Shown here piece by piece: positions 8,688 to 60,617 of a stretch of DNA of 64,000 bases (position 1 is the stretch's first letter; each line of letters begins with the position of its first letter). The stretch comes from Carcharhinus longimanus (taxonomy: Eukaryota). The DNA is taken from the NCBI GenBank assembly GCA_030264375.1, contig JASCQW010000177.1, forward strand, positions 5,952,202 through 6,016,201, in the 5' to 3' direction. The position numbers were made by a program, and so were the translations under genes. The notes under the pieces are model-generated. The model was not told where the DNA came from. It saw nothing but the letters and a program-made list of their open reading frames with translations, and searched no databases.

Positions 8688-11065
8688 CCCCCCTGAACTT
8701 TCCTAATGAAAGATGGAGTCACTGCAGTGCATGAAGTTAAGAGGAACAATAACACTGCCACGTGCCACAAGAGGTACCGCAAGATCAAAATGAATTAGGA
8801 TTGAGCACACAAATCAAGTCACCCTTCACAGCTTCTCCAAGCAGCTATTCTTAATGTTTGAGCACCAATACCAAGGGTTACCTGCCAGTGATCATACCCA
8901 ATCCTCTGTCCACCTAACCTCAGAACATGCCAACTTTATGGCTGGAGTGACTGGAAAGTAAACTGGAGCAAGAACATTGGCTGCTTTTTAACCATAAATA
9001 GGCCAGGAGCAAGAAGTCGTAAGAAGCATTCTTATCATCACTCAGAGGCAGAATGAAACGTAGGCCTGAAACTGAAACTAGAAGACAAGTAAAAATTTTG
9101 CACAAGGCTGCATTAAAATACAAATCTCAAAAAGCCACACAGATCTTGAGATTGTGTTCTAACTCATGCTTCTGAATTTGTGTTGTGTTTGGTAGGGTTC
9201 AGATTTAACACGAAGACTGAAAATAAACCTATGTCTTATTGGATAACTGTTTTGCTGGATGAGGCTGGATTTCCAGTCTTCAACTGATTTCAGTTAGATC
9301 AACTGTTAGTGTACTAAATTATCCTAATAGGTCTGATCGATACCTTGGGACCGCCAGTGATGCATAAAGAGTCAGTGCCCTCAGGGAAGTGAAAAGAGGA
9401 TTAAGACAAGACAAGCAATATGATGCTTGTGAAATCCAAATTACACAGTACCTCACTGCCCTGATTTCATTTCCAAAATGCCACAAATTATTCAGAATTT
9501 TGCAACATCGAAGGCTACCAGATAAGCTACAGTTACCAAGGAAACAAGTTGTCTGATCTCACTAGTTCCAAATAAACAAGAGTGCAATTCTGCAACACAG
9601 CATACAAAACTATGCAGAATGCCTCAAACAGGCTTTGACTGGACAACCCTATCTAAAGAAAAGATAAACTTCAACCTTCGAAACAACTCCCAAGTCAGTG
9701 AGTGACTGTATCGCAATGATAACAGGAACAATGAAATCAGTCAGAAGTTTCATTAGCTTATGACCAGCCACCTGTAGGGAGTGAAAAATCAGGAGTGGAG
9801 GATGAAAAACCTGGTGAGATAATGCATCATAACTCTCTGCTAAATAGTGCAACTTAAATTCAATATGAAAACTTCAAGGAATGTTTAGCTCATGATGGAA
9901 ACAGTCTGTAGACATACTGAAAAGGAAAACTGGGGTAAAGGTTGCATCACACAGACTTGAAACATTCATCCCTTTAAATACCCACAATGAGAGCTGCAGT
10001 CTATAACAACCATTAAGAGTGAGAATAAATGATTTTGTGGCCTTAGGAGGCTGTGCATCAAACGTGGGTTGCTTCATAAACTCTTCAAAACATCCAATGT
10101 TGGCCAAACAAAAGTGCAGTATAAATGCTTTTAAAGTGCAAAAGCTGAAAGCATACCATTTCCATACCACAATGACAAAAGATGCACTGTCCGTAACTTG
10201 GCCCAATATTACTTTTCCCTGGGATGCGGGGGAGGAAGAAAGAAAGGAATATGCTTTTATCAAGCCTTGGTTATCATACTGTTGAGACCGGGACATGAAA
10301 TTCTCTTGTGTTACCAGATGTGCAAATCATTCATTGCTGGTTTCGTGAAAGAACCAGAGGGAAAAAAAGCAACTTCAATTCCAATCAACTCAGTTTGGTA
10401 AAACAGACAAGGCTCTGGCTCAGTGCATCATTAGTCTCTTACTTTATGTAAAATATTTAGATACAAGTATTGCCGTATTAGCAAGGATCATCATTACAAT
10501 TAATTGATTACATGAATTTTAACTCTGATTCAATTTGTAGGAGAGGGTGCTTTTCCTGAATTAATAAGACTGTTCATTATAAAGGGTAACAGTACCATGT
10601 AGACTTATTCATTCATAGTTCAGTTTCAGGAAATCAAAACATCTTACCCCCACCTGCAATTAAATCATTTGAATGAAAAAGAAGTACCATGTTAGCTTTG
10701 GTACATAACCAGAAATAAACATTTATTTTTTAAATCACTTTCAACCCAGTGAACCAAATTAATTAGATTTACCACCATACCTCTCAACTGTACTGTTTTA
10801 AAATCACTGTGCCCCAACAGGAAGCTTCACCACTGAGCCAAGTAGCAACGCAGTGCAAGTAAAATGAGCCAACATGGCGATTCTACAGATGCCACACTGC
10901 CTCCAAACTAGAGCCTGAATTCCAGCATTCAACATGTTGCAGTTTGAGAGGTATGTGCACCGTAAAATCAAGGCTATTTATTATATGTACGAACAAATTG
11001 ACTTTAGCCTTGACCCCAGCCTATTTTGCCTAAGGATCTACTTCACAAGGTTGCACTACACCAAC

Positions 11066-11185
11066 CTTTTCTGCCTGGTTTCTTCCCAGAGCTCAGCTGG
11101 CCGCTAACGTCATGTAACCTGGTATCCAGCTCACTCTTCGAGTCTAGCTGGAGGTCATCGTTCGATTTCCCTGGGACTTTTTTCA
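11066..11185 (-). CDS. brd4: Post-ET coiled-coil exon of BRD2/BRD3 type ([40 protein letters not shown])
   Basis: gctgtttgcag|TG AAA ... AAA G|gttggt; 120 nt, phase 1-1, in frame with exon 10. Aligns to BRD3 ...[35 protein letters not shown] (from memory). Confidence 0.88.
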
Positions 11186-13939
11186 CTGCAAACAGCATCA
11201 CACAACAAGATTTGGACCAAACACTTTGGTACCGGTACACAGGTACAACACAGTGAATAAAATTACTCTAGTTTGGCACGTGGGATCAGATGCAAGGTTT
11301 CTGCAAATTTAAAAAGAAAAAAGAAAGAAAGCAGCTGTAGGAAAACAAAAACCCATTCACAGTTTGTGACTGCTCTTGAAGGCCATCAATCTGAAGAGAA
11401 TTTTAACAAATATTGGGAAGCATATGGATTTTGCAATAGCGAGGTCAGAGTCTTTTACTGACAGATTAAATCACTTCAGGGTAAAAATATAGGGCTCAAT
11501 TCATTGCTAGTGACCTCAGTTGTGCTGCTGTAAACAGCTGCGTAGGGAAAACCAGGCCAGAGGCTAGAGTAATCCCTGGTTGCGGCTTCCAATTAAATTA
11601 CAAAGGACAATATCAAATGTAAGCTATAGCCAGCAAAGGGGTTTCTCAAGGATTCTGGAACAGAAAAGAAAATTAAAACTATCTGCTCCTGCCACTTAAA
11701 ATATGAGACCAAGTAAACCATTTCATTTTAATAGCTTCCCCCCCACACACCCCACCCGATGGCAAGAGTATAGAAGACACAAAAGCCTCCACAGCCACCA
11801 TAAACCAGCTGTCACAAGGGCCAGCGAATTCCATGCTCTCCGAGGAAGTATTTAGTATTTCCCCACAGTGACACAGTTGATATTATGAACTCAGCACTGT
11901 GAGTGACAAAAGCCCCACCAAGTGGCATGACAGAAACTGTGATTCAGTACACCACCTGACTTTTTGTTGGGCATATTATTTTCCCTGCAGGCAATCACAA
12001 ATATCTTCACACACAAATGGTTTTGCACAAAGACAGGTTTAATATTAAATCATGACATCACTACTCTGCAATTAGCGAATTTTGCAAAATTACAATAAAA
12101 AATTCAATTTCACAGGAAGAGATAAATCAGGTTCAACATTAAAAAGGAAACAGTGTACCTCTGAAAACCAGCTGTTGCTTTGACCCCTGGTTAAGAAGCC
12201 CAATAATGTCATTGCTCCACCCGTGCATGCCCATACACAAGTGGAATATGATAGAACAGAGCAGATCATTTACCATGATCTGTAAATGATCACGCCCAGT
12301 GCAAAAAAAGTTCAAATCATCTCCTAGCAGGGTAAGAACACCACATACAACACAGAAGAACAAGATACAGAAGAACAGATCACCCAAATCATGTTGGTTT
12401 AGAACATAACAGAACCCATTCAGTTAGAGATGTAATGAGAGGCATTTTGTATTAGTAATCATGTTCACTGTCCCAACACCATTATTTTTGCACTAAACCC
12501 TGTAATATTAATCTACAAACCAATTAATGGTCTAGCTTATTTATATATGCTCAAATTCTCAAAAATGCATTTTTCTTTTTAACAGCATGGAGAGGCACAT
12601 TTCCTCAAGTACTGAGTGGTGCACAGAAAGTCCCTTACCCAACCCAACCCCATACATACAATCTCAAATGTGGTTATCAATGGCCTTTATGGCAAAATTC
12701 ACAATCATAGCCTGGAGTTGCAAGAACCGAGTTGTGTGTGTGGAATCTTAAATGTTTGAGTGTTTAAAAGTCGCCTTCAGGGCAGGAGAAAAATACTGTG
12801 GCCTGGGAGCTGGAAGGAACCCCAAACCACAATCACTAATAGACTCACAGATGTTCAATGATGTTGTCTGCCAAAAAAAAAGAGCATGTGAATTCCAAGC
12901 CCAGTCACACAGCCTCCGTCAAATCATTGGCATGGAAAACACCAAATTAACAAGCAGCTGGTCAGAGTTGCTCCATTTTCCCCCTACAGGGATACAATTT
13001 TTATTTTTAAGCACTTGTCATGTGGACAGTACATTTAATTTGGAAACGCACATGAACACTCAGTTAGAATCGAGGTGTGCAAGGCTGTTGACCCACAATT
13101 TTCCCATTTCTATTTATTTCTCATTTCACATAAATAAATAAACTACATATTTTGTGAAATTTTTCAGATGGTGACTTTGCTTCAGACAATGGCAAAAGAT
13201 GTAATATGGCATGACAGTTTCAAAGAGAAATGGGGGGAGAAAAGCGAAGGAAAAAGGTTGAGCATTTTGTTTGTTGATTTTATTTTAGTCAAGCTTATGA
13301 AAACCAAGCCTAATTCCACAATCCAATCCTAAAGAATGAGCTAATTTTGAAAGCAGCCATTGTGTACAGATGCTACACAATTTTATACAGCAGTCATCTC
13401 AGGCCCACAACTGCAAGAGTTGCGCTCTCACTGTTCACATGATTAACACTGACCAAGTGCCATGTACATGACTACGAATGGTGTGTATGCATTCCTGCCT
13501 TGACAAGATATTAGGCTGGCTGGGGCATCACCTCATGGTTCTGATTAATATGCAGCAGAAACCAATTCAACTACAATTGATCTGAATTTTTTTGCGGGGG
13601 GGGGGGTGGTTTAAAAGAAGTTGTTTCCCCTCAAATATATTCAATTACAATAATGTCCTATGCACTTAAGACCAACGGCAACACTGAATAGAAATCCAAG
13701 AGATTTGATAACCTCAATTATCTTCAACAATTTCCCCTACAAGTTCCAAGAAAAATCTACACAGTCAGCTAATGGTGCAGTGGCAGTAATGTGTTGGTAA
13801 GTGGGGACACAGACTTGGCTTTGCAGCTGTATCCACAGTGAGAATCCAACCATTACCAGGCATTCTGGATGGTGCAACACGAGTAGGCAAAGACGGGAAG
13901 AAAAAGTAACGTGAATAATCTTGGAACATTCATACGCTC

Positions 13940-14082
13940 CACAAAGGCAGGAGATTGATAGGTTATTTTGGACAAAAGAATCAAGGGATATGGAGATAGG
14001 ATTGGAAAGTGGAGTTAGATCAATCATGATCTAATTGAATGGCTCAAGGGACAGTATGGCCTACCCTGCTGTTTCTTATGTT
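13940..14082 (+). mobile_element. CR1 3' tail fragment
   Basis: aatcaagggatatgg...gatctaattgaatggc...tatggcctac...tcttatgttc. Confidence 0.7.
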
Positions 14083-15259
14083 CAACTTGGATCATAAAGA
14101 GAAGGGTTAAGTAATAAGACTGGGAACCACATGGAGTTGCATTCTACCATCACTGAAATTTGGGGTTTGATGCACCCTGGATGGATGGGCTTAAAGTCCC
14201 TCCTATCATTGCTCAAAACAAAATTAGTTTCTGTAGTTTTGACTCTCAGTTGATACAGGCCCACAAGAACAAAATTAGCTATAAATTGGTAATCTCAAAG
14301 AACACAAAGATAATACATGCAGATTCTGAAGCTGCAGAGGACTGATTTGAAAGTAAATAAGGAGAGTTTTACTCTTCATCTGGATACATACGAATTAGAA
14401 GAATTTGATGTTGACCCTAAGTTTTAACACAAAGGGTCCCATTCCTCTGCATAAGCATCTCCTTCCACATCAGCACAAAAATGTGAAATTTAATTTTAAA
14501 TTTTTATTCGTCAGACAAATTAAATCTTCGATTTCCTGACATGTTTATGGCCAGACAGCTGAAAACTTTTGGAAAACAAAATGGGATGCACCTTGCAGAG
14601 AGCAGCAGCAAGATTAAATTTGATTTTAGGCTGGTATTTGTCCAGAGGGAGTTTTTGAAATAGACTTTTACTGTAATTTCTCTGGACCTTTGGGCTCAAA
14701 ATTCATATAACTAGACGAAACTTTGGGCCAGTCACCTCTAACCTTCAATCAAACAGCACCAACATTTCCATAATTTGAGATTCATTAGTTGCTTGACAGC
14801 AATAACCAATTCTGCATTTGGCCATGTGCAATAACTTAATCTGATTTCCAGCACAGCCAAGTTTTTGGGCCAGAGGAAGCTTCCAATTCATTTCTGTGGG
14901 TCAACATCGTTTACTACCTATCCTAAGGTATCTACCTATCTTTTGTATTATAGTGCAATAAAATATGTGCAACTGCATAAGCTAAACACACCAAGTAACC
15001 TGGCCATAGAATGCTGCAAGTGAGATCGACAGAAATTAGTTTGTCTTATTTGAGACAAATGCTTGCTATGTTATGAAAGGTCAGCAGCTTCCCTCTGCAT
15101 TTGTGTTGATATTTGATGCTGCATTTTTCAACTAGTTAATCTAGTTTGAATATTTGGCAAGCGCTGCTCCAAATTTCCACATAAAAGATTAGTAAAGCAT
15201 CTCAACACTACCAAATAAGCAAGCATGTAGTCAGAGTGCACATTTCTCTGCATCAATAT

Positions 15260-16010
15260 TACAAGCCAATTGATTCATTTTGGTAGGAAGAACTCATGAC
15301 ATTACAGATATAAAGTAAAACATACAAATCTAAAGGGGGGGGGAAATAAAGAGCAGAAGGGCAGGCATGCATGTGCATAAATCATTGAAGGTGGCAGGAC
15401 AGCCTGAGAGCAATTTATAAAGTAAAACCCCCGTCTTGGGTTTTATCAATAGGGAGATGAGTACAAAAGCAAAAAAAGTTATGAAATATTGGTCTGACTT
15501 CAACTGAATATTGCATCCAGGTCAGGGTATGACAATTTAGGAGGAAGGATGTGAAGACATTAAAAAGGTGCATTAAAAATTCACAAAAAAGGCTGCAGAG
15601 GCTGAGGACCTTCCGTTACGTAGAAAGACTGAAGATATTGGGATGTTCTTGGAAAAGTGACAGTTGAAAGGAGATTAGATAGAGCCATTCAAAATCATGA
15701 GGGTCTGCAAAGACATAGATAGGGAGAAACTGCTCCCATTGAAATGGCTGAGTACAAAAGGACCCAGGATTTAAAATAATTGGAAAAAGAAGCAATGGCA
15801 ATATGAGGAAAAACTCTCATGCAGCAAGTGGTTAGGATCTGAAAGTCAAGACAGGGTCAACTAGGGCTTTCAAAAGGGAATAGGATCCTATGCAAAGGAA
15901 ACGTTGCCAAACTTTACTGTGTATGATAGACAGGAAATGGCATTAACTGAATTGTGCCTTCAGCAGGTGAGCAAAGGCATATGAGCTGAACATGCTACAG
16001 CCATTCTCAT
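15260..16010 (+). mobile_element. Decayed CR1 LINE 3' region
   Basis: Remnants of QLEYCIQ, KDVK.L, LKGD.IE.FKIMRG and VVRIW. Confidence 0.75.
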
Positions 16011-16179
16011 TCAATGAGCCATTTTCTTCCCACTCTTTCCCATGTCCTTCTATCCTCTGGATTTCTGAATTGCTGTCACCTTGCCTGTGCTAGTCAATGT
16101 CACCCTATTAGCCACCTATCCTAACTGCAACAGCTACTGTCTTACAGGGCCAATTTGCAAGCATTAGGAAATACGAAAT

Positions 16180-16900
16180 GCAAAACCTCACAGTACTTTA
16201 TTTTTCAAATTGTGTTAATTTATCAGACAGATTTTATACCTTTCCTACCACAAATGTTAAGCCCACTTGTTTATTGTTCCCAGGATTAGATACACCTCCC
16301 TTTTTGAAGATAGGAATTACACTTGTTACTCAGAAGTCCTCAATTCCTTTACCAATTGAATTTTTGTACGTCAATACCCTTATTTCAAATGTCAAGTTTG
16401 TATTTGAGCATCGGTGCTCTGGATGGGGAAAAATTTGCAAAACTGGGTTTAGATAGATATTAGATATTGGCATATCATTTAGGCCAGACTGTAAATCTTC
16501 ATGATACTGCCTTCATAGATTTTGACCATGTGTAGATGCAATCAATTTGAACACGACACTGGGATCTGAGGCTTGGGATGTATTTCTTATTTCTTCCGAT
16601 CTTAACTATCGTACTAGCCCTCTCAACTACTACCACATTTTCTTTATTTCCTTAACAGAAATTGTGGCAAAATCCCAGTCAAGCATCTTTATCCTTTCAC
16701 TATCACCTGCTGTGTATGTGTCTTGGAGGTCCTAAACTTAATTAACCTTCTGTTACTGATGTGCTGATACCTCACCCATTTCTTTTTGTAATTTTTTAAC
16801 ATTTTCATTTCACGTTCATTCTTTGTCTTCCTAAACTCATTCTTTATGTGCTTTGTGCATGCCTTCTTCATTAGGTTATCCAACTCCATAAATGCTCACC
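16180..16900 (-). mobile_element. Very old CR1-like fragment
   Basis: ccctttttgaagataggaattac (minus strand: VIPIFKKG) and Lys-rich helical remnants. Confidence 0.5.
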
Positions 16901-17186
16901 TAACCTCAATGACTAGTCAAATGACTCTTCCTATGTGTGGTACGCATGTGTCTGGAGTAGATGGTCCAGATATTCCCACCTTCCACTCCAGCTCAACAAC
17001 CTTCCAGTTGAATGACTTAAGTCACAAGCAACTTCATCAGCGTCTCATTAAACTCTCACATTCTGCAGTTTCAACAATGCCTGAGCTCCAATAATCTAAA
17101 TTTATGCATTTATTTACAGTAGAATCTATATTTCTAGAGACAACTCATTACTTTTTAAATGCTACATGATTAACAGATATTGTTTG

Positions 17187-17292
17187 CAATAAAAACCAAA
17201 GTGCTGGGGAAAATACTCAGCAGGTCTGGCAGTATCTGTGGAGAGTGAAACCGAGTTAACGTTTTAAATCCAATATAACTCTTCTTTGGAAG
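17187..17292 (-). mobile_element. Penelope-derived terminal repeat with an eroded hammerhead-like core, running into an N gap
   Basis: Minus strand ttccaaagaagagttatattggatttaaaacgttaactc...cagacctgctgagtatt...cagcac; related ends at 49128-49290 and 51805-51880. Confidence 0.65.
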
Positions 17293-18945
17293 NNNNNNNN
17301 NNNNNNNNNNNNNNNNNNNNNNNNNNNNNNNNNNNNNNNNNNNNNNNNNNNNNNNNNNNNNNNNNNNNNNNNNNNNNNNNNNNNNNNNNNNNNNNNNNNN
17401 NNNNNNNNNNNNNNNNNNNNNNNNNNNNNNNNNNNNNNNNNNNNNNNNNNNNTTAATTTCCAATTAATAATTAACTTATAGCTGACAGATAATTTCCCCC
17501 AATCCTTATTCATCAATTCCCATAAAAGTTGCCCCTTTATGTACTGAATAGTCAGATACGGTGCATGTAAGTAGTTGAACAAAGCCTTTCATCGCCCAAG
17601 CTCTGCTGCTCTTCCCTGTGTCAGCTAGAACAGTTTGCTAAATATTCCCCCATGTTGTTTTAAATCCTCTCCCTGGGCCTTTGCTTTTGGTGGATGGCAA
17701 TGAAGTAGACATGGGTAAGGAAGGCTGGGACTTCACAGTTAAGATGTTGGCAACTGATACATCAGCCAGTATTTTTAATTTGTGATAGCGCTGTATGCAA
17801 ATTTCTGGTTACAATTCACCAAGATATACCATACAGAATTACAAAAATCTTGAGAGGGGGAGCACGACCATTCTAGCTATCAGACCCACAATGGTGGTGG
17901 TGTTGCGGGGACGTGGGGAGCGAGCAATGATACATCTGGAAAGCAGAAGAACATTCACTGTGACATCTCCACTGTTGAGCAAACAGGAAATAGTCACTAG
18001 CTGCCACGCACAAGAACAACTCATTCTGGCAAGACATGGGGCAGTTGCCACAACGCTTTATTGCACCTACTGCTGCAGAGGATAGGGAGCCAAAGGAAAA
18101 CAAAATAAAGGATTTCTGAAACAATGAAGCAGCAACTTACAGCATTACAACATGCAGCAATGCTGCTCATGTTTCACCTTCATTACTGAACATAAAAGGT
18201 AATATTCTGGAGGGGTGGGGGTGGGTGGAGTACGCGCGGTATCATGTTTATTAAAAATGGAAGACTGCGCTCAATAGATTCAAACTGTCCACTGAAGAAG
18301 TAAACTCATCTAGTTATCAGTTACTATACACAAGGGATTGAAATTCAGTACAGAAAACTACACAGTCTGATACCACTGGCACTAATTTCTGACATGTTTC
18401 TTAACAAACCTCCATTAATCTTTGCTTAAATTACTTCCAACCATAAAATACAGTCAATCTTCTCCTCAGGCACACCTCTAGTGTTTTCTGCTTTTACTTC
18501 TGAGTTTACTGTTTTTACTACAGCATTCGCAAGTTTCTTATTTTAAGCTAATAACTAGTCACTGTTTCAACCAACCATTCTTGGCACAAAGATAGTGCAT
18601 TGACAACACAGAATGGCAGCGACATGGCTTAGGGCCAAAAAAGAAACTAGCATCCGAGAAACAAGNNNNNNNNNNNNNNNNNNNNNNNNNNNNNNNNNNN
18701 NNNNNNNNNNNNNNNNNNNNNNNNNNNNNNNNNNNNNNNNNNNNNNNNNNNNNNNNNNNCACCTTGCAGTCAGGAAATAGCATATGGCATGGTAAGTGGA
18801 GAACAGTTTTAGTAAAGAGAGGGAATGACTGATATATTAAGAATGGCTTGATTAGATTGTGCACATGAATCAATGTACAAATTTTTCGATCAATTTTATA
18901 TAGCGAGGTGACGATCAATTATTTTTTTTTAATCCGCGAGGGCTA

Positions 18946-19416
<471 letters not shown>

Positions 19417-28400: not shown

Positions 28401-28544
<144 letters not shown>

Positions 28545-31500
28545 CTAGAAGCAAGACAGGAGGAATGTCAATACTCATAAGATGTTTTGTGAATTGTAAG
28601 CAAATCATTTAAAAACTATTAAATATTTTAAAGTGCCTTTTATCAATACTGTTGGGACAAGGGAACGATTTCCAATCAAAAAGACAGTCACAAAAAATTC
28701 TGGAGGGGGAACTTAGAGTTAAGATCTAGGCAACGGGTCCTCAACTGTAGGCTGGAATTTAACTATATCAAAACTATTAGAATCAGTGTACCCAACAAGG
28801 ATCTACAATTCCAGAGCAACAGCATAGGTCAAATACATGGATGGGAAAGGTTTAAGTGGGATAGGGGCCAAACACAGGCAAAGGGGACTAGTTCAGTTAA
28901 GGAAATCTGGTTGGCATGGACGAATTGGGCCAAAGGGTCTGCTTCTGAGCTGTACATCTGACTCTAATCGCATGATCTGACTGAATCCTTTCAGATAGTG
29001 ACAATATAGCACAAAACAGCATGCTGCTGACTCAATATTTTTAAGGCTTTTTAAGCACTGCATTCTTCAGTAGAGAATGTGGTTCTAATTTGAAATGTAA
29101 AAACTGTATCTCTTTATACAAATTAGCTTCACAAACAGCAGACAGAAATGCACAAAACAAGATTCTCTCAATACTACCCCAGTATTCCTCTCCTCGCATA
29201 TAAAGAAATATCCAACGGTGTCTTTCCCTAAAGTTCATACAAAGTGCATTATGCAAAAGTCTCACTTCAATTAACCCATTTTACTGCTTCAGTGCTCTTC
29301 ATAGTCTCAATGTTTTGAAACACAGAACGAAAGGCTCTAGAACAATGGTCCCTTCCCCTCCTCCCACACCCAAAGAAATTCTACTTAGCTTCATGAACTA
29401 CAACTAACTACCTCTTCCTTCTCCCAAATGAAGCACAATGTTTGCTAATGACACCCACATGTTCCTAAAATGTTAATACAAGGTCTTTACAGCCTTCCCT
29501 TGCAGATATAATCTGATAATTCAATGCTGCATGGAACATTAATTTTCAAGCTACATAACAAAGACCTGTCTGAGAACAGAAGTGATATTTATGCATCTCC
29601 CAGTGCTACTTGCAGGTCCCCAGCTGACAAAAGTTATGAACAATTACCTATTCTATGCCTTCCCCTCTTTTCGATATCCCTTTCTTGCCTCTCAAGTCCC
29701 GATGTTGGTTTACCACCTTTCCCTTCATAAAAGGCAGCACATGCTGCCCTGCTTCATCAAAAATTGAAAACAAGGCTCTGAGGAAAGCCTTGTATTTTTA
29801 GTGCATTGTTCCAGACTTCAGGATATCCCAAATCACTTTACAACCAATTAAGGTCTCTTGAAGCGTAGTAATTGTAGTAATGTCGTAAACGATTCAGCCA
29901 ATTTGCACACAGCAAATTAGAGTGATGCAATAGCAGTTTATCTTCAGAAAGTAGAAATTCCCAGTACAGAGACATGGACTCCATTAAATACCCACATTTA
30001 AATATCCTGTCTGTATTTCTGAACAACTGAGCACATTGTTATTGATATAAAATGTGAAATGATTAATTCCACGGAGGCACAAAGGGCCTGTGAAATGGTT
30101 GTGGTTAGCCAATAGGACTACTAGAAAGTAATAGATTTTAAAAAGTGAATTAAGATTTTTTTAAAGTTTGGGTTATGTTATTCATTGGCCAGCAAGGTTG
30201 ATAGTTATACTTTGCCAGCCAGTCATGTCATTACTGGCTGGCAAAATTGCTCAAAGCAACATTTTACTTATAAGTAGATCTCAAACAAATATACAATTAT
30301 GAAATAATTTAGTGATGGATCATTTGTTCCAAATTAAGCTGAGACGCACAATTTTGCAACACTGGGGCATTATAGAAAATTACCAAGTAAACGCCACTTG
30401 ATTTCGTAAGTAAACTATCAATCCAGCTCACAACTTCAAACATTTGAAAGACTATATTTCAGAATCAACAGACAACCATGTGAACCTTCAAAATACGATA
30501 CAACATCCAATGTAAAGCCTAAATGAAATCCAAAAAAGCTTCAGAGTGCTTCATCTCCCAGAATGAATATGCGTAAATGACAAAGTCCAAGTTAGCAAAA
30601 CACTCCAGTCTTTTATTCCAGCATCTGCTGGGTTGATGGTGTGTACGTTTACTCTAACCCCTCTCCTTTCTCATTTTTTGATTCCTGAATCACGTGAAGA
30701 TTCAGTTTATCGTACAGCTTAAAACACACTCCCACTCTCCCAAGTTTCATTTCACTTCTGTACTATTCCTCCACCTAGACTAATATCTGGTCTGAATTGT
30801 ACTCTATTACACTTCAGCCATTTCAACATTCTCCATCACAGGTGAGGCTATTAACATCACCTTCCACATGCAGCAAATCAATGTTTTATAAAAAGCCAAC
30901 ACAAGAACAATGGGTCAAATGGCCTCTGTGTTGTACAAGAACATCATTTTTCAGACTTCACCAAAGTCCAAGTAATTGCTCCTGAAATAACCAAATTTCA
31001 AATTTAACCCTCAACTCTCTGCAATGGGTTGTGATTATATAAATGAAAAAAAGATTTAAAAAATGCAAGGCATGATATTAATTCATTAATGATTTTGAGG
31101 ACCTTAGCAGTTAATTCTCTAGTCTTCTCATCTCACACAAGATTTAAATGGCACAACAGCCTTGCCATTTTGTTCACCACAAAAGCAAGCCAAAAGCACC
31201 TCGAGGGAGGAGCATTGAAAGCAGAGGCATCAAGAATAGGATCAAAATAGTGTAGAGGCAGTCAAGAGACGAAGAGCTAAAAAGCACTGAACTGAGTGAG
31301 ATCAAAGATATGAAATCAAAGCATCTCCAAGAAGTATCCCAAAGTCTGTGCTGTCTTTGTAAAACAGCTGCAAGTTGCAAGCATTTGCATTTGTTTTAAA
31401 TTTGAAACTTCTAGGCTGTAAAGGAGACTGGCTCACAATAAAAGCAATCTTCAACAACACCACAATCCAGCTGGTTAAACCATTCTCACACAAGCCCAGT

Positions 31501-32427
31501 AAGAAAATCATCCCATGTAATCAAACTACAGAGCTACAAGCTACACTCAGTGATAAGTCTGCAATGCTCATATCTTGCAGTATGGTATTAAGACTTACAA
31601 CACTGAAGTGAAATGGCAGATCTGTGGTGTTCAAGTTTAAAAATAAATGGAAGCAAACAATTTTAATTGTAGAGTAAGATCAGTTAAATTTTCAATTACA
31701 TGCACTTGATTATTGCAAATACACATTTTGATGCTCACAAATAACATACTTGCACTGTGAACTGTTTCAAGTATTCATGCCATTTTCTTAATTGTGGCAT
31801 TATCTAATGAAAGCAAACTGTAAAAAACCATATTATCACTGATTCTCACCCAGAATTCATTAGAGAAAAAAATCTACTGTACTTAATGCATTTAAGGTTA
31901 TACTGGGATTCTCTGCAACACAGGAGATATGGCTCAAATCATTTGATAGAACGAGAAGCATCAAAAGGGTATGTATTCAGGGAAAGTAGAAAAGAAAGAA
32001 TGGAAACAGAAACAGAGAGATAACTATGGAGGTTTTTTTGCTATGTTTGGCATTGTCGCTATCGCAGAATTTACAGTCTGCTACAGAACAGTAATGGCAC
32101 AGATAATGTTACCATGCCACAATTAAATTATTCATAGATTTGAGTTTTATGATTACAGGATCAGTAGCTCTTTTTGACAGATTCATTGACTAACAAACTC
32201 GTGCATTTTCAATCGATGAAAGTGATAGCTACCTTCTCCAGCAATCTTGCAATTTTAAGACCTTTAAATATCTTAGTGATGTTCCCAAACAATCAAATAT
32301 TATTCACGTTCTGTTCCAGTAGCTTTGTTACAATCACTGACTACCAGCAATCACTTCACCCATCTGATTGTCCTGCATTTGAGGTCATCTCAGACCAATG
32401 CCAGTAAAGGCAGACAATAAGCATCAG

Positions 32428-32712
32428 CGAGCACCCACAGTGGTTAGCACTGCTGCCTCACAGCACCAGGGACCCGAGTTCAATTCAATTTGTGTTGAGT
32501 TTGCATGTTCACCCTGTATCTGCGTGGGATTTCTCTGGGTGCTCCAATTTCCTCCCAAGATGTGCAGGTTAGGTGGATTTGCCATGCTAAATTGTCCATT
32601 GATTAGCCTTGGTAAATGTGCAGGGTTATGGTGACTGGAGGGGACTGGGTGTGATGCTCTGTCAGTGTCAATGGGATGGATGGTCTCCTTCTGCGTTGGA
32701 GGGATTCCAATG
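32428..32712 (+). mobile_element. HE1/V-SINE-like SINE
   Basis: cagtggttagcactgctgcctcacagcaccagggacccgagttcaatt...gagtttgcatgttc...gccatgctaaattg. Confidence 0.9.
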
Positions 32713-33488
32713 AATAAATGGCTCATTTTTTTCAATTTGTGAAAATGCAGCCTTTAGGTTTTTAATCACAATTAATACAAATGAATAATGCCATGGGAAT
32801 AAATCACATAACTGATCCATAGTCAACATACCCCTTGCAGCCATGTTTGGTGGTCAGAACACTTGATAATGTTTTTCAGAATTTCCCCAAGGGTTTAACT
32901 ATGTAGCACACGGATGGCTAGTGGGTTAACAAAAACACAACTACCGAACATAAAAATTCATCTCAAAACTCACATCCGTAAGTAACTAGGAAATCTAGGG
33001 AAAGTTGCTCAAGCTGTGACAGCAATATGCAACATGAGTTTCTGAAAGGAGAACAGAGACCTAGTAACACTTACCTTCAAATCTATTCTCAACCTCTGTT
33101 GAACTGTTGAAAATTTACAATTTCAAAAGCTGCGTAACAGAAATAGAACAGCCTAAAAACTAATTTATTTAATTTCACAAGTGGTTCAAACGATATTTGT
33201 TCCGAGTATCCAATTACATTCCAATGTAATACTCTCATTGCCAGGTTTGTCATTCTTGTAGAGGAAAAATATGAAGAAATTGCTCCCTGGAACCTCGGTA
33301 AAACTTCGACACATTAGAAATAGAATTGGATGTGGTCAGTCAACCCAAATAGGTGTCTTCAATTAAAGGCAGATGGAATTCCAGGAGGTAATACAGCCCT
33401 CAAAACCATCAATAAAATCTATCTCGCCTTTTCCAGTTGACATAAATTAGTAGTTGTTTGGTAGTACACAACTTGAGGAAAACAATAC

Positions 33489-33837
33489 ATTTTTTGTTGA
33501 AGCCATTTATCTTTCACTCCTGAGGACATCCGCAAAGATACAAATTTGTACTGTTCAAGAAGAATGCACGGATTGGCAAGTAGTCTTACATTGTTAAATG
33601 TGTTGCCATGGAGAATGCACCAGTTGATGGCAGCTGACAGTTAACTTAAACAATGCTTAGCAATTAGCGGTCAGTCACCAACTGGTGCATTCTCCATGGC
33701 TACACCGCTGACAATTAAAGTCCACTTGCCAATCAATCAGCACACTCTTGTCATGCAGCCTAATTTGTTGATTTCTCTTGGATTGTATTTTTGAGAGTGT
33801 TCTGATGAGTGCAAGATAAACAGCTTCAACAAAAAAT
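33489..33837. repeat. ~350-bp imperfect palindrome with hammerhead-like motifs near both ends
   Basis: Ends attttttgttgaagc / gcttcaacaaaaaat; perfect 22-bp inner inverted repeat 33605-33626 / 33679-33700; gattggcaagt / acttgccaatc; CTGATGA at 33802. Confidence 0.9.
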
Positions 33838-33887
33838 CTTTTATTTTCAGTAATAAATCAGTGGCAAAATTTTGTCCACAAGCTCAC

Positions 33888-34162
33888 TAGAATCGTAGAA
33901 TCCCTATAGTACAGGAGGCAGCCATTCGGCTCATCGAGTCTGCACCAACCACAATCCCACCCAGGCCCTATTCCCGCAACTCCACGTATTTACCCTGCTA
34001 ATCCCCTGACACTAGGGTCAATTTAGCATGGCCAATCTACCTAACCCGCATATCTTGGAAGGAACCTGGAGAACTCTGAGGAAACCCACACAGACAATGG
34101 CCCAAGATTGGAATTGAACCTGCATCCCTGGCACTATGAGGCAGCAGTGCTAACCACTGTGA
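33888..34162 (-). mobile_element. HE1/V-SINE-like SINE
   Basis: tagaatcgtagaatcc tail through ggcagcagtgctaaccactgtg head, in reverse orientation. Confidence 0.9.
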
Positions 34163-36355
34163 AACCTATTATTTAAAGGCTGCGATGTTGGCTGGGGAAA
34201 TAAAGTGGATATTTTCCCCCATGAATTTAGGCCTCATGACATCATGTCCAGTGCTTCATAAATATTAAAATGCACAAACACAAATGTGTTAAGATGGTTT
34301 TCCTATTCTGGCACTGTGGCAGTAGGCTGAATGGTTACTCCCATGCCTTACTGATTTGATTCTGTCTATTAATTTTGAAGGCAAAGTAAGTAGACTGGCT
34401 GACTTTAAAAACTGCCCACCTTAAGCACATCCTAGTTATCTATTTTTCACCTTATCCAATTTGCCCATTACCTTTGTCTTTCCTGTGACACTTGTAGCAT
34501 CCTCCTTTTTTGTAAAGGCAATATATGCGTACCTGCTTAGTGCTGATGCTTTTATGTAAAACCAGTACTTAAATAAACTGTAGTGCAAAGGAATTTCATG
34601 ATTGTGCTGATAAATTTGATGCTGCTGAAATCAAGTGCAATCTTCAAACTTTTTAAATTTTGCTGACTTTCTCCTATTTCAATTGACTCCCAGTTTTTTG
34701 ACTCACCAGTCCAAGCACTTCCTAGCTAGTCACACAGACCAGTTATCTCACCCGAACACTAGCAAAGATGCCTGGATTCAATCTCATACTCGAACTCAGC
34801 ATCACCTCCCAAGATTTGGAATGTTATAGAATCAAGGGCAAGGTTAAAAATAAATTCAAAGAGCAGTGAATAAATCAAACCAATACCGTCCGCTCAATAA
34901 AGCTTTTGCACTGCCACACAAGTGCACTGTTCCAAATACACACGTTGATTTGAGTCGACATCAAAATGAAATTTGCATTAGATTCAGATACTAATCCGTT
35001 AGCAATTTAATGCTTCATTGCCTCAAACAACCTATGCAAAAAAATGACCAAGCTCATTAATAAGGCAGATGGAGAAAGCATATTACATTTATCAAATTGT
35101 AAATAAATACTGTAATGACTTAACTACTGCAATCTTGCTACAGATGTGCGCAAAAGTGAACCTAGTGAGTAGTAGTGGGATTAACCTATTGTATTATTTG
35201 GTTTTGAACACTAAAGGATTCACTTACTACAGTTGATATATAACATTCAGAACTCCAAATTCATGCATTTCTCATCCTGTCATTTCTAAAGGGAGGGCAT
35301 GTGCCGAGAGAAATCAGATAATAATCAGCTTTTATTTGGAATCAGGGCTAAGGCTAGACTGTGGGCATCATTCTCGGATTGTCATTTACAAACACACATG
35401 AAGACAATGTTAGATGTAGCTCATCATTAACCCTCAGTAAGACGATATCACACGACAGTTTTTCTGCTTCACAAACCAGACTGACTACAAAGTGGCCAGT
35501 CGCGCTTAACTTCTCAAGTCGAAATAAAACCCACACAGCAGTCATCCGTTCAATATTCTCTTTATAAGCACTTATTAAAAAATGGGAGGAAATTCCTATT
35601 TTGGTAAAGAAAATTAGGATGGGGAACCAAAAGTAAACCATACTTGTGACTTACCAATTTCTTTTGTGGGCAAACTCGAAATACAAATTTAATATTCACA
35701 AACAGTTCAACTTTCAGTTAAGATTTAGGGTCAACAGGGGTTAGGAGCGCTTGCTAAGGCACTTGATGCAATGCATAAAGTTTACTGAAAATTGCACTTA
35801 ATCCAATTACTTTGCATGAATGAATAAGGTTGTCTTGGTTGTTAAACAATGGAACTCTTGGCCTCTGTGATTACCTGATAGTTTGTAGTTCTTTTCATTT
35901 TAAATTCTTACTCTCTTCAATTTTATCAATTTCAGATCATGCATTTATAAACCTCTGCTGACGAATATAAACATTAAGAAAGTAATTTTAAGTATTAGTT
36001 TAATAATCTGAACAGGACCTCAGACCAGTGGAGGTCAATGCCAAAAGGTAATAGGAATTCAAAACCCTTCTGGGTGCAATCTAGTCTTTGTACAGACTAC
36101 ATACATGCGCTTTCGAAACCAGTGTATTGCAAGATACATCAAGGCATCATCCGGTGCAATTTAAGATGGCTTTGCTTGGGACTACGCCTGCATAACGTCT
36201 CAAGGCGTACAATGTAAAGTGTCACTTAATATTTCATTAAAGAACCAATGAGATATAACAGACCTCAAAAGGATCAACAGAGGACAGATTCAATGGTGCT
36301 GTACAATCCAAGCCCTAAAGTTACAGCTACAAGAGACTGTAAGGTATTGGCTTAC

Positions 36356-36778
36356 TTTAATAGTACTGAGATCCATGGGATGTTTAATAATGTCGTGATA
36401 ATCGTGGAGTCCCAAGGCTTCTACGTCCACAGGTTTGTAGAAGGGCCAGGCATAGGCTGCGTGCTTCTTGGCGAACATTTCCTTGAGAATGCCAGTGCAG
36501 TACTTCAACTGTTCTGAAACCTTTCCACTGCCAACCACAACCCCAACACCTCCACCGCCACTACCTACAACCCCACCACCTCCACCCCCACCCTTCTCCA
36601 GATGTTGCTGCTGGGAGTCTGGCATTTCTTTCTTAGCCGGTTTTGGAGGTCTGCCGCTTCGAGATGGAATCTTTGCAGGTTTGGGTTCAGTCATTAATGG
36701 AGAAGACTCTCGACTCTTCACGGCAACATTGGTTGTTGGAGTTGTTGTGTCAGCTTTCCTTTTCACACCCTTTTTATG
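36356..36778 (-). CDS. brd4: BRD4 exon 6: motif A ([13 protein letters not shown]), Gly/Val insertion and first half of BD2
   Basis: ctctctccaag|CAT ... AAA|gtaagc; 423 nt, phase 0-0; [24 protein letters not shown]. Confidence 0.97.
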
Positions 36779-37586
36779 CTTGGAGAGAGAGAGAAAAAAA
36801 TGCATATTAAGTCCTGAACATGCCATCCTACTAGACATTATTAGCCAAACAATGCATAATGTGAAATAGACTGAAGGGGGGAGATATTAATATAGTTTAT
36901 CCTTGTGACTGGTGAAACAAACATTCTACTTTAAAATGTTCCTCTTTCGTGACAAAACTGAAAGCTTCTAAATTCTGACTGCTTCATGGAGAGGAAGGAT
37001 ATCACAAGTCAACTTTTGATAAGTTAGAAGCACAACCCAAGACAAAAGCAGATGTCAACCATAACCACACCTGGCGGACAGACATTGTCTTAAAAGCTCA
37101 CAATTTTCACAAATTGTTTCAAATGCTGCAATGCTAAGTCAGATACAGCAAAAGGAATTTAAAATACGATGACATGGTTCCCGAGAATTCCATGGGGAAA
37201 TTGCTCAGAAGTAATTCACAGTACACTCTTAGCTTAGCGAAGTACTTTGGCCTTGATTTTTTTTTTGATGTTCCCATTTTCATTAGACCTCTCACTCAAC
37301 CCAATGTCTGATCGGAAGCACTAATGATTAGTCTTCCATTGTGGGTAATCAGGAATACTACAAAAAAACTTGGCAAAGTTCTTGGTTAAAACCTATTTTT
37401 AACCAGCAGCTGGTCCACTATTCGAGAAACACTCAAGTACACTTTAAAAAACGTTGGGGCTGTGTATATTTATCAAAGATTGTACTGATTTCTCTATATA
37501 GATTTGGACCCAAAAGATTACAGCCTAAAAGAAAGAACAACACAGGGAACAAAAACTAGGGGAGAAGCTACTGAAAGGTCATCTAC

Positions 37587-45177: not shown

Positions 45178-45316
45178 CTGCTTCTTTCCTGCCTCTACCC
45201 CGTGATCCTTTGGTAGGCTGTATGGGTATTTCAATCTCTTCTTGTGGCATCTCCGAAATTTTCTGAAGAAAAATCTTTTCCAAAGCTTCTGCCATTAAGA
45301 CTATGTCATCCCCTTG
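45178..45316 (-). CDS. brd4: BRD4 exon 4: end of BD1 ([46 protein letters not shown])
   Basis: Not in the ORF track; translated by hand. tttacag|CAA ... GCAG|gtacat; 139 nt, phase 0-1. Confidence 0.96.
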
Positions 45317-46334
45317 CTGTAAATTAAAGAAAATACATATTATCCAGTAACTATGATTTAACTACAACAATAAAGCGAAAACAGTGAGAGTATTAGTTCT
45401 GAGTTTTGCAGTTGAAAACAAAACAATGAATGGAAACTGACTGAAGTACAATTTAGATCCTTTAACTTTGTTATATGGAAATGAAGCCAACTAAGGACTT
45501 TGAACACAAGCTCTTAATGAAACACGGCCTTGATTTGGCAATGTGCCCAAAAGTTTAACAGAGGTTAGTCCCCATAGTTGGAAATGTGAGCTTTGAAAAA
45601 GAAGCGATGGTGGTGTTGGTAAATCCATGGCCTGGAGTGGTGGCATTGAGCCAAAGAAATTGGGACGAGCCAGAATTGAATCAATGCTCTATGCTAAGTT
45701 TACTAACCTCACTAAGGGTAGCAGCAAGGATGCTATTAATGGCCTTATAAAGGATAAAGGAAAAATATCAGAGAGACAAAACAGCTAATTTATCTCAATC
45801 TAGCAACCTACATTTGAAGTTAATTGTATGGACATCTTGTGGACATCCTCTGGTAAAATAACCTGTTAATACTCTACAACTAGACCCCAAAGAATGGTCT
45901 GGATGTTACTCCACACTCTTGAAACTGTATCAAGAAGAAATTGCTCTTTCAATTCAAGAAAGACAATTGTGAACAATTCAGCTCAACTCTCAAAATGCCT
46001 CCGCCCCTAACATACCAGCAGGATCATTTCTCTTCATTTATTTAAACAAAACAGATGTTTCAGTATGGGAACCAAAAAACATTTTATAGCTAAGAAAGGA
46101 AAAGCAAATGGTTGCAGCATGCATGTACATACTTAAATTGCAAATTAGTATTTACATGAGGTTAAGCACAGTAAAACTAATATTCTTCTGTTAGAGTTGA
46201 AGAGACATATTACACAATGTGCTTCTTTCTCATGCCATTTCAAATACTTCGAATGAAACATAGTTACAGGCCATTCATCAAGTTCTTCTGGCTGTAGTTC
46301 TTTCTTTGCTTCATTTCATTAAAAGACAAAAAAT

Positions 46335-47100
46335 TCTCAAATCACAGCAAAAGATGCTGCCATTCAGCCTATTGTGCCCAATGACCCCAGTCCATATGCC
46401 ACTTCGCCACTGAATTGCACCTCTCCTTTGCAGTTATATATCCAACTTCTTTTTGGAAATTGGTAGTGACTCTGCTTCCTCCACCTTTTCAGGCAATGCA
46501 TACTAGATTGTAAAATAGTTCTAACATCCCGCCACCCTCTCCCATGGCCTTTTGCTAGTTATCTTAATCGCACCCTCTGATTACCAACTCTTCCACAAGA
46601 GGAAAAACGCGCTCACCATCTACTCTTTCAAAACCCCTTTTAATCTTGAAGGCAACTAGCCTGCTCCAAGGTCTTGTTATCTTTTCAAGGTAACCAGAAA
46701 TGGATGAAATGTTTAGCAGGAGATACTTGCTTGCTTTGGTATTCAATGCCTCCATTTATAAGGTCAAAAGGTTCCATATATTTCAAGTCCTACCACCAAT
46801 ACAGCTGTTATTCTTTACACCAGGATCCGTGGTTGTAGCCCCTTATAATAGTTTCAATTTATATTGCCTCTTCTTTTGTGCCTTCCAAAATGTTATCACT
46901 TTATACATCTTATTTTGTACATCATGTTAGACCACTTCAACTGTCTTCAACAAATTATTTTTGATGTGTTTCATTGTTTTACATTTTGAAGTTACATGAC
47001 ATCTCAAACTTTTAAATTAAGCCCCCTAAACCCAAGTCCAAGTCACTTCTGCATGCCTGAAACACCAACCATCCTAATGAATGTAGTCCTTTTGGGAGAA
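46335..47100 (-). mobile_element. Decayed CR1 3' region
   Basis: Minus ORF AFKIKRGFERVDGERVFPLV and tail gccattcagcctattgtg. Confidence 0.7.
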
Positions 47101-49127
47101 ATCAGTTTCTCCCCGGACATCAGACCTTTTAAGGTTTACTGCTCCATGACAGAGAACCTGTACTGTACAATTCGAGGAATAGTTAGGTGCTCAAAAACAG
47201 CATTCAAGCACACTTCCCTTTATGATGACTAGTGGAAGATTACCATGTAATGTGTATAAACTGTTATACATACTTCTGACTTGTACTGTATTAAGAATCA
47301 GAGACATAGGAACCTCCACGTTTTGCTAGTTGTCAAGTTAATTTTGGCCAAAATAATTTAATAACAGAATGAGATTTAGTCAACTAATAATGATTGAACT
47401 ATTATTCTCTGCTTTCTACAATAAAACACCTTTTTTGCACTAACTTTATCTTGCCTCAGTTCAAATGACTGGATAATTCAAATAATGCCCAAGTGTCAGG
47501 CCGTTGCAATATATGTAGCTTGCTTGATATGCAAGAACATTTAACATCTTAAATAAAACCACGCTCACATTACAAGTGAGCTTGAAAGCCATTTCAAGGA
47601 GAATGTATGTGGAGTTGCACTGATCATAATCTTCCCTTGGAGTTCACTGCCAACTCCAGAAACAAGTCAGAGACAGACAGCAGAGACCTAGAAGGCACAC
47701 TACTTTTAACAAAACTCTCCAAAGCAATATTACGTATACCATTAGACAGTCACAAGAAAACTTCGACTATTTAAAATCTCACTCATCCTGCAGCGCTTAA
47801 ACAAACTGCAAATGATTTTTTGCTGCAAATGCATTATTGGTTGCTTTTCCAGATAATTCTATTCTATCCCCTCAAGAAAATAATCAACACAAGGTCACTT
47901 CCATGGCTCTTCAGGAGAATGGAACTGAAAAGCATCAAACAAAGCTGTTTGCATTTACAGACTCATCTCTGAACTACACACAAGAGGTTTCTCTTCAAAC
48001 AGCAGGTCTCATTAATGAGTCATAATTATTATCCAACCAGCAGCATGGTCAACCTTAGCAGCTGAATCTGTATTTATCTTTCTCATTCAGCTTCAATTCT
48101 TAGTGATCCGAGCACAAGCTCTCATGATACCCTCCACAGACAGCCATTCATGTCTGAAATTACAGTTAATCCAATTCTATTCAATGTATCCAACTTCAGG
48201 CATTTGTGTCTTCAAACCTTACTCCAACTACATATTGCTAAACTTCTGCTCGTAGTTAGGATCTGTAAAGTTTTTGCTAACGTCAACTTGTTTTGAAGTG
48301 AACCAGCAGAAACAAAGCTCTGCATCTTTTTTTAAAAGAAACATAATTGTCACAACTTTTTGCACAAGATAAAAGGCACATTTGACCCCAATGCAACATG
48401 TGAAACATCACAGTTTCATTGTGTCCCCACCGAAAACTTGATGTCAAAGCCGTATGGATTTCCAGGACACTTCAAGAAATAGCTTCTTCTACAAGCACAG
48501 TTTCAGTCTTCAGCTAATGGCACAGATTCCATGATAGAATTCAAAACATTTGTTCCTCAGGAGATATAAAGCAGTGGTCTACAAATTGGCACCTCAATGA
48601 AATTATTTGCTGCTACCTGAAGGAATCTCATTGAAAGCCTAAATTTTCTGTTGTGAAAGCCAAGAAACAAAATTCATCCAAGTGATCACCAGCTCTCCAG
48701 TTCCTATGTTGGTCACTTTGGCTCAATTGGCCAAAGATCTGAATGGAACTGTCAGAAGACAGCCATTTTAAATATGAAGGGCAACATTTTCTTTTCACAT
48801 TTCAATTGCTATTCTATTTATTGCATGCACTATGTTCCAAAATTCTAGATTTGTCAGTTAACATACATATGGATTATTTTTGAATTTTAAAAAGCACAAA
48901 ATGACAATTTTAATCATGATCCAGTCTAGCTAACTGTTTAATACTACAAAATAATTGGGAATATAACTGTCCAAATTNNNNNNNNNNNNNNNNNNNNNNN
49001 NNNNNNNNNNNNCCAAATTCTTCTTTCCCTGTTATTTTGCCTTGCTACACTAAAGCACAGAACAGATCCTGTACAAGTGTCATAATTTAGATAGTCATAC
49101 GGCCTTCACAAACAATATTGGAGCACT

Positions 49128-49290
49128 AAAAATGCTGGAAATACTCAGCAAGTCAGGCACATCTGGGGGGAGAGAATGAATGCCATACATAAATCATTGG
49201 CACTGTTTATTTCTTCACAAGTAAAGCCTGACCGCCAAATAACATTTCCTGGCTGATTTGATTTCCCCACTCATATCAGCAGTATTTAGT
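49128..49290. mobile_element. Penelope-derived end in a head-to-head (inverted) arrangement
   Basis: aaaatgctggaaatactcagcaagtcaggc ... gcctgacc...atttcctggc; the same end as at 17187. Confidence 0.5.
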
Positions 49291-49292
49291 TT

Positions 49293-49575
49293 TTAAGTTT
49301 TATTTGTCACAAATAGGCTGACATTAATGAAGTTACTGTGAAAATCCCCTAGTCACCACACTCTGGTGCCTGTTCAGGTACACAGAGAGAATTTAGCACA
49401 CCAATGCACCTAACCAGCACATCTTTTGTATTGTGGGAGGAAACCGGACCGCCCAGAGGAAAGCCACACAGACACGGGGAGAACGTGCAGACTCCGCAGA
49501 CAGTGATCCAAGCCGGAAATCAAACATGGGTCCGTGGCGCTGAGAGGCAGCAGTGTTAAGCACTGAGCTGCCCCA
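49293..49575 (-). mobile_element. tRNA-derived V-core SINE, second tail type
   Basis: Reverse complement homologous to 23371-23656. Confidence 0.88.
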
Positions 49576-49800
49576 ACTTTGGCACAATGCTGGACTGAAT
49601 ACAAAGTGCACTCATCCTGAAGCAGAAATTGTTGTCAATCTGATAATTCCACTCAATCTTAGAGGCGTTTCCCATCTAAGTTTACACACGAAGATGAACG
49701 GCTTGGGAGAAGTGCTCAATCATACTGAGCTATCATACTTCAAACTAAACTAAATTACTTAATTTAAGTTTCTCATCCTTTTACTTACAACATGATTTTA

Positions 49801-50091
<291 letters not shown>

Positions 50092-50461
50092 TCACAGATA
50101 GCCAGTCAGTTTTTCCCAAACTGTTTATCTACACTGGTTGATGCAGTCAATGCAGAAATTAATCCCATAGCTAGTGTGGGCAAACACAGGCAACCGTACG
50201 CAGAATTTCCATACGGCAATTTCAATGTTAAATGCTAACAAAGCCAAATGAATTAATTAGCTACAGTATTAATTGCCATTCAGTACATATGTATTTGTTA
50301 TTGCTTGCATAGAATACAGACCCTACTCGAAGTTTAAATTAAAAAAACAATGCCGTGTTTAGTAACTTTTAAAGAGATAATGTTTCCATATAAATGATGA
50401 AGAACATGCTTGCAAGTCAATACAATATGCAGAATACAGGATTCTACAGATACTGCAACGT

Positions 50462-50740: not shown

Positions 50741-50799
50741 AAACAGAAGCTGTGGCACAAAGTTTGGATACTTAAATTGTGTGCGTGTCTGTGTCTGTG

Positions 50800-60405: not shown

Positions 60406-60593
60406 AAGATGTATTCTTGGCTTTTGCTCTGTCAAGACAAACTGACACTTACAATAGGTTTAATTTTAATTGGAGCCATGGGGCTATTACAGTTAGCTTC
60501 AAATCACTGATCAAGGACTTCCAATATTTGCTGACCAGTTACTGCTGCAGAATGTGAATTTCACATGGAAGGAAAAGGTACCCCGTCCCCCAC

Positions 60594-60617
60594 CCCACAC
60601 ACACACACACACACACT
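60594..60617. repeat. (CA)n microsatellite
   Basis: Directly visible. Confidence 0.9.

Follow-up and report, generated by a model that had tools for sequence, protein, structure and literature searches.

The BRD4 gene of Carcharhinus longimanus appears to have kept the ancestral coiled-coil (CC) exon of the BET genes. Splicing still joins this exon into the shark BRD4 mRNA, and it is likely a cassette. Its presence overturns the general statement that BRD4 lacks a CC. In the window (the whole 64,000-nucleotide stretch analysed here), this post-ET exon lies on the minus strand at 11185–11066, spans 120 nt in phase 1-1 and has a frame that is open throughout; the acceptor AG occupies 11187–11186 and the donor GT 11065–11064. 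The BRD4 exons and introns of the window described below are on the same strand.

Identity and structure of the gene

Two bromodomains and an ET domain are present at the locus. The tblastn exon map placed the first bromodomain in three exons (45221–61552; tblastn limits ~61552–61232, ~49995–49858 and ~45325–45221) and the second in two (28416–36781; tblastn limits ~36781–36356 and ~28559–28416). The ET-domain exon (18954–19240, 287 nt) matched the Pfam BET family (PF17035, E = 1.1e-29) and ends at 18954 with a GT donor, from which a GT-AG intron of 7,768 nt (11186–18953) leads to the CC-type exon. The initial annotation had described a clean 120-nt phase 1-1 exon 7.8 kb past the ET exon; both this exon and the peptide it had given were confirmed. 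The SEED exon lies outside the window (L005:3556-3434), across an intron of 17.5 kb from the donor site of the CC-type exon (11060–11065), and downstream of it are long-tail exons and a C-terminal motif in L007–L009.

Sequence comparisons identify this gene as the BRD4 orthologue. The tail exons in L007–L009 match gecko, newt and gar BRD4, the last exon matches Pfam BRD4_CDT (PF17105, E = 6.8e-12), and separate BRD2, BRD3 and BRDT loci were found in the same genome. In an ET-only tree (28 rows, 88 columns), gecko, newt and horse BRD4 were closest to the shark ET, and the branch parting all BRD4 rows from the rest had a support of 91/96, which is under the star threshold of the tool. A check of NOTCH3/AKAP8 synteny detected a Notch NOD domain on C177, the contig that carries the window, 6.2 Mb away and assigned to Notch only. 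As to the genome itself, the CC and SEED exons of its BRD2 differed by 0–1 residues from those of eight of eight named sharks, and by 2–5 residues from ten of ten named ray proteins, which identifies it as that of a shark.

The BRD4 SEED exon retains a GGPSR-type motif that is shared with BRD3 and with invertebrate BET proteins but altered in bony-vertebrate BRD4, so that the region adjoining the CC-type exon is ancestral as well. Separately, three unnamed proteins (P0004, P0281 and P0282) showed 98% identity to the ET exon and ran ~70 residues into the intron (window:18946-19416); the window's own frame past the ET exon stops after 3 residues. These proteins are likely to be intron-containing contigs of a relative.

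Homology to the coiled-coil exons of other BET genes

By sequence, length and phase, our comparisons show the shark BRD4 exon to be homologous to the CC exons of BRD2 and BRDT in this genome. These are likewise 120 nt long in phase 1-1, with the GT donor at the equal place; the BRD3 CC exon was not found in the genome and probably falls in the assembly gap that makes up most of that intron. The BRD4 peptide is identical to the shark BRD2 and BRDT CC at 21 and 20 of 40 positions, respectively (50–53%), and BRD2 and BRDT share 27 of 40. A CC profile built from 90 CC segments of non-BRD4 BET proteins matched the BRD4 peptide with an E value of 1.9e-11. When the same profile was run against 4,430 stop-free frame segments drawn from the window and eight loci, the BRD4 exon was the only segment under E = 8 (E = 2.2e-10). 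Taken together, the profile score and the single match argue against a chance resemblance. No second CC-like exon was detected by profile or search in the window or in L005–L007 (L005 has a 2.2-kb gap), and Pfam contained no family matching the BRD4 exon or the BRD2 CC.

Splicing of the exon into shark transcripts

All six sampled words of the exon were present in 20 of the 24 sequencing runs listed (10 organism codes, 10 studies). None of these runs is recorded as RNA; the contigs are shown to derive from transcripts by spliced GT-AG joints across 7.8 and 17.5 kb. Contigs from eight of the 20 runs were aligned, four on the SEED exon and four on the ET-to-exon stretch, the runs having been chosen for containing the exon's words, which biases the sample to high identity. 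Loose ends of contigs joined the 3′ end of the exon to the SEED acceptor in four of four runs, and contigs bridging the upstream intron joined the ET donor to the exon (11185-18954, GT-AG) in three of four; the X10 contig additionally carried the SEED start at the far end of the exon. In the mRNA, the exon thus follows ET directly and precedes SEED. One or other inclusion junction was seen in seven of the eight runs, from seven organism codes and six studies. The BRD4 exon is spliced into shark transcripts, and of the three junctions that the initial annotation had proposed to count, the two inclusion junctions were found. Four added runs of organism A without the exon's words, and run X15 without an alignment on the exon, speak neither for nor against this.

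The splicing data also bear on the origin of the exon. The exon is highly unlikely to be a dead relic or to have been copied later from one of BRD2, BRD3 and BRDT through exon shuffling or gene conversion, even though, of the three shark CC exons seen, its peptide has diverged furthest. A dead relic, an outcome that the initial annotation had named, is ruled out by the spliced junctions on both sides, which are in frame, and the exon is conserved across organisms. As for a copy, the exon sits at the ancestral position and its nucleotide identity to the two paralogues (73/120 and 79/120) is no closer than theirs to each other (80/120), which argues against a recent transfer.

A retrocopy was also considered as the origin of the joined contigs and rejected as unlikely: the peptide search of the genome matched only the BRD4 locus and two paralogues. 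In the intron between ET and the exon, interspersed repeats at window:17209-17290 (four of four runs) and window:15290-15870 (three runs) were abundant in transcript contigs. Low-depth intronic contigs of run X7 aligned with high identity at window:12085-13469, upstream of the exon, and represent either pre-mRNA or conserved intron sequence.

Contig geometry and probable alternative splicing

With 120 nt in phase 1-1, the exon is symmetric and preserves the frame, so it could be removed without a frameshift. In runs X10 and X18, the exon formed a contig of its own of 177 bases, in which its 120 letters stand between 30 from ET and 27 from SEED; the ET contig ended exactly at 18954. We simulated word graphs for eight mixtures of isoforms with a word length of 31 letters, which agrees with the observed 30-letter overhangs. 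Inclusion together with ET-to-SEED skipping was the only mixture of the eight to yield 177/30/27, in which the count of 27 SEED letters follows from the ET exon and the CC-type exon ending in the same three letters; read-through with a retained intron gave 178/30/28. From this geometry in two of the eight runs, we infer that the shark BRD4 exon is likely a cassette. The cassette proposed in the initial annotation thereby gains indirect support from the 30/120/27 pattern, alongside the symmetry of the exon and both inclusion joints; no ET-SEED record appeared among the contigs listed, where such a contig would be <60 bases long.

The exon could instead be constitutive in practice, with the bubble arising from low-level mis-splicing, a reading that overlaps with the other alternatives discussed here. 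Contigs of X8, X5, X13 and X14 continue through the exon unbroken, indicating that skipping is absent or minor in these four runs, and in X10 the depth of the exon contig equalled that of the long ET contig (16.1 vs 15.3). In X18, however, the exon contig reached a depth of 161 vs 393 in the adjoining ET contig, a ratio of ~0.41 by what is a rough measure, and the identical contig geometry recurred in two studies. We therefore regard constitutive inclusion as distinctly unlikely and retain the cassette as the preferred reading.

Run X7 displayed a further pattern, 29/120/151, which fits none of the eight models, with an exon contig depth of 18 vs 81. Its ET contig reaches one letter into the exon (window:18953-18954). 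This geometry suggests another continuation that starts with T and differs from both the SEED exon and the intron.

Conservation of the exon and RNA-level features

Compared with the window, the most distant run, X10, showed 1 difference in the 120 nt of the exon and 27 in 289 of the ET exon (Fisher p = 0.0009). The corresponding values were 0/120 and 8/289 for X7 (p = 0.11), and 0/120 and 3/179 for X18 (p = 0.28). Pooling gave p = 5e-6, with non-independent rows and a contrast that is inflated by picking runs that contain the exon's words. Among the X10 differences listed for the ET exon, 12 of 13 fell on the third codon position; as the ET differences are mostly of this kind and the exon is nearly invariant, the silent sites of the exon appear unusually still. 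Little synonymous change is generally characteristic of regulated exons. It indicates constraint at the RNA level and is, alone, no proof that the peptide matters.

The 25 nt of the acceptor region (11186–11210) are UG/GU-rich, with 11 such dinucleotides vs 0 at the ET acceptor and 4 at the SEED acceptor. Folding of the exon with its flanks gave no stable RNA structure (z = −0.92), and the inverted repeats around the exon amounted to six short pairs, none of them notable. Two other candidate traits were discarded: CpG richness (5 in 120 nt), in which the ET exon is equal, and a weak donor site, the same donor hexamer being used by a bromodomain exon.

A predicted remodelled helix in the encoded peptide

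To describe the peptide we used AlphaFold models of 41-residue peptides, which are single-sequence and weak (pTM 0.31 and 0.43). The BRD4 peptide was modelled with a helix at residues 17–32 (16 residues, mean pLDDT 73), compared with residues 9–31 (23 residues, pLDDT 84) for the shark BRD2 CC, and in this single-sequence model it falls short of an unbroken helix some three heptads long. Residues 9–16 (window 11139–11162), which form the first half of the ancestral helix, are non-helical in the model, Glu and Lys having given way to Asp, Asn and Ser, whereas the second half (residues 17–32 of the 41-residue reading, window 11091–11138) is helical and keeps its conserved face. The replacement of helix-favouring E/K residues by D/S/T/N, noticed at the outset, was borne out by composition: Glu and Asp number 1 and 5 in the BRD4 peptide, but 5 and 1 in its shark BRD2 and BRDT counterparts.

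The distribution of the changes follows the same division. Among columns at least 85% conserved in 88 homologues, the first half retains one of six in shark BRD4 and the second half 10 of 13 (p = 0.04, for a split that was picked after the models were known). Eight core residues of the BRD4 peptide were found in none of the 88 homologues. On a helical wheel of the second half, four of these never-seen residues lie at 60–160 degrees, and 10 of the 11 kept residues lie between −160 and +40; the kept face comprises the seam residues Leu, Leu, Val and Leu, flanked by Lys, Glu, Arg, Asp and Gln. The LxxRLxDVSGQL core is retained along with the four hydrophobic seam positions of the second half. Additionally, the peptide contains three S/T-x-x-D/E sites, which is the CK2 consensus, vs one in each paralogue. 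The description of the exon as eroded thus applies to the first half of the helix, which is lost in the model, and less well to the second, where one face is changed and the other intact; it fails for the exon as a whole, which is more conserved in nucleotides than ET. The change reads as a remodelled and now frozen segment rather than ongoing decay.

These data allow another interpretation, in which the exon is kept for splicing control elements and the peptide, having lost its binding function long ago, separates ET from SEED as a tolerated spacer. The nearly frozen synonymous sites beside a drifting ET exon, the UG-rich acceptor, the eight unprecedented core residues and the ability of bony vertebrates to manage without the exon all agree with it. 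On the other hand, the second-half changes are concentrated on one side of the helix and leave the other side untouched, as expected from selection on the protein, and neither a stable fold nor a notable inverted repeat was found. We consider retention for RNA-level reasons possible, though rather unlikely.

Distribution among BET proteins and probable loss from BRD4

We collected 129 BRD4-type ET ends and dropped 17 that were cut off, read into an intron or carried a non-SEED insert. The remaining 112 spliced bony-vertebrate BRD4 proteins are gene models, form a redundant set (61 cluster representatives and 51 cluster members) and span alligator gar, ~50 teleost entries, newt, lizards and mammals, X1 isoforms included. 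The CC was absent from all 112, in each of which ET runs straight into SEED; similarly, human BRD4 isoform C (PDB) matches bat BRD3 only as far as the end of ET. By contrast, the CC motif was present in 91 of 103 other BET ET ends, hagfish, lamprey, arthropods and ribbon worm included. The 12 without it were mostly cut or intron-reading models, together with two nematode repeats and two diverged copies.

The occurrence of the motif in other BET proteins down to invertebrates supports the view that the CC exon is ancestral to BET genes. The initial annotation had proposed such an origin, with a loss from BRD4 in another lineage, and had named presence in most vertebrate BRD4 as the finding that would remove the novelty; the counts favour the proposal, and the loss extends beyond mammals to gar and teleosts. 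The CC was likely lost from BRD4 once, on the bony-vertebrate stem, as judged from a sample outside which the BRD4 of coelacanth, lungfish, bichir and sturgeon lie. Neither a full-length BRD4 from a cartilaginous fish nor any BRD4 assigned by name to a ray or chimaera came up in the protein searches, in a collection where cartilaginous-fish BRD2 is present, and two open reading frames of the window were not in that collection by exact sequence. The exon may already be contained in automated shark annotations, in which case the novelty lies in its recognition and evolutionary reading.

Teleost BRD4 proteins (P0180-P0232) show two-residue differences at the ET-SEED junction, for instance among carp proteins, which suggests that splice sites lie 6 nt apart at the place of the lost exon.

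As for the other end of the protein, of the 32 invertebrate-type proteins retrieved in which the C-terminal motif is present, 30 have the CC motif as well, and shark BRDT has both a CC exon and a long-tail exon. The CC and the C-terminal motif both look ancestral, with reciprocal losses since.

Observations at other BET loci

When the donor of the BRD4 SEED exon (L005:3434) is read through, a Gly codon is followed by a stop. The letters are the same in BRDT and BRD2, which terminate there, and BRD3 terminates at that position too (L004, L025 and L019). A contig of X13 reads through the SEED donor, and the stretch immediately after the donor is covered by contigs of X5 and X14. These observations suggest a short isoform of shark BRD4 formed by read-through, with BRD2 and BRD3 representing the fixed short form of an ancestral gene that had long and short products.

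An ET exon on contig C109 (L002) encodes a protein identical to skate BRD2, with unrelated sequence before it; no CC was found within 30 kb downstream, and no flank is common to L025. The BRD2 locus itself (L025, on contig C81) has an assembly gap where the ET exon belongs. The C109 exon is either a misplaced assembly piece or a partial second copy. BRDT and BRD2 sit together on the 103-Mb contig C81, at 13.8 and 85.3 Mb, along with two Notch NOD domains at 75.3 and 95.9 Mb; the human BRDT and BRD2 genes occupy separate chromosomes.

Discussion

We propose a model, held with a little more credence than doubt, in which inclusion of the exon adds a half-length amphipathic helix capable of partial or weak contacts of the BRD2/BRD3 type, and skipping restores the familiar BRD4 layout. 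The peptide would serve as a binding helix of reduced strength next to ET, switched on and off by splicing, its first half unfolded and the hydrophobic face of its second half retained. The inclusion form may bind a subset of the ET-CC partners (TFIID, PAF and CK2 in mammalian BRD2 and BRD3), or bind them more weakly, with the two new mid-peptide sites of CK2 type as possible modulators. The skipped form, which some samples probably contain, would have the ET-to-SEED layout of bony-vertebrate BRD4. Historically, the exon may have become optional in the jawed-vertebrate ancestor or in the shark line and was then presumably dropped on the bony-vertebrate stem.

A stronger version, in which the inclusion form is a fully working BRD2/BRD3-type coiled coil that unites TFIID/PAF and P-TEFb recruitment in one protein, a task for which the long BET proteins of invertebrates seem to be built, is unlikely. 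The preserved core, all four second-half seam positions and the co-occurrence of CC and C-terminal motif in most of the invertebrate-type proteins retrieved speak for it, but five of the six conserved first-half columns are altered and the modelled helix is seven residues short of its BRD2 counterpart.

Returning to the weakened helix, it is conceivable, and we suggest tentatively, that shark BRD4 is a splice-switchable hybrid: a working remnant of the BRD2/BRD3 initiation module (TFIID/PAF/CK2) plus a P-TEFb-binding tail on one chain when the exon is included, and an elongation-only protein when it is not, with the division becoming fixed through the skipped isoform on the bony-vertebrate stem. 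If so, sharks preserve an intermediate in the division of labour between BRD4 and BRD2/BRD3. The shark gene is a BRD4 with both modules, which dates the loss of the CC after the split between sharks and bony fishes, and it suggests a route from sequence change through optional splicing to deletion. The exon may also serve as a natural half-mutant, the first half of the helix being changed and one face of the second kept.

Werner et al. reportedly described, in 2020, an ET-CC (ETCC) module of mammalian BRD2, BRD3 and BRDT. Like that module, the shark BRD4 exon stands between ET and SEED and encodes the core motif; it differs in belonging to BRD4, in being likely optional and in its changed first helix half. 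The CC exons of shark BRD2 and BRDT share its 120-nt phase 1-1 structure, while the shark BRD4 peptide has two more CK2-type sites.

Among the openly accessible papers that our literature search covered, supplements excluded, none described a CC exon in the BRD4 of sharks or other fishes. Two reviews give the CC as absent from BRD4 and describe the mammalian CC as cooperating with ET in scaffolding PAF and CK2 (PMC11939847, PMC10055343). According to a recent preprint, a C-terminal fragment of human BRD2 that includes the CC is needed for TFIID binding, the deletion concerned removing this fragment and not the CC alone, and BRD4 bound P-TEFb instead; its authors propose that BRD4 gained a P-TEFb domain and then lost its initiation function (bioRxiv 10.1101/2025.09.20.676678). 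The human BRD2 fragment holds the homologous CC right after ET, and the binding described there is that of human BRD2 only.

The C-terminal motif is noted in Drosophila FSH-L in a further paper (PMC5133849). Invertebrate long BET proteins of the fs(1)h type and shark BRDT resemble shark BRD4 in having CC and C-terminal motif on one protein, and differ from it in that their CC is canonical. Bony-vertebrate BRD4, in its long and short isoforms, is alike in the type of its ET, its proline/glutamine-rich tail and its C-terminal motif (PF17105). Unlike shark BRD4, it has the CC segment in none of the proteins surveyed, and its ET-to-SEED junction is the layout of the predicted shark skip form.
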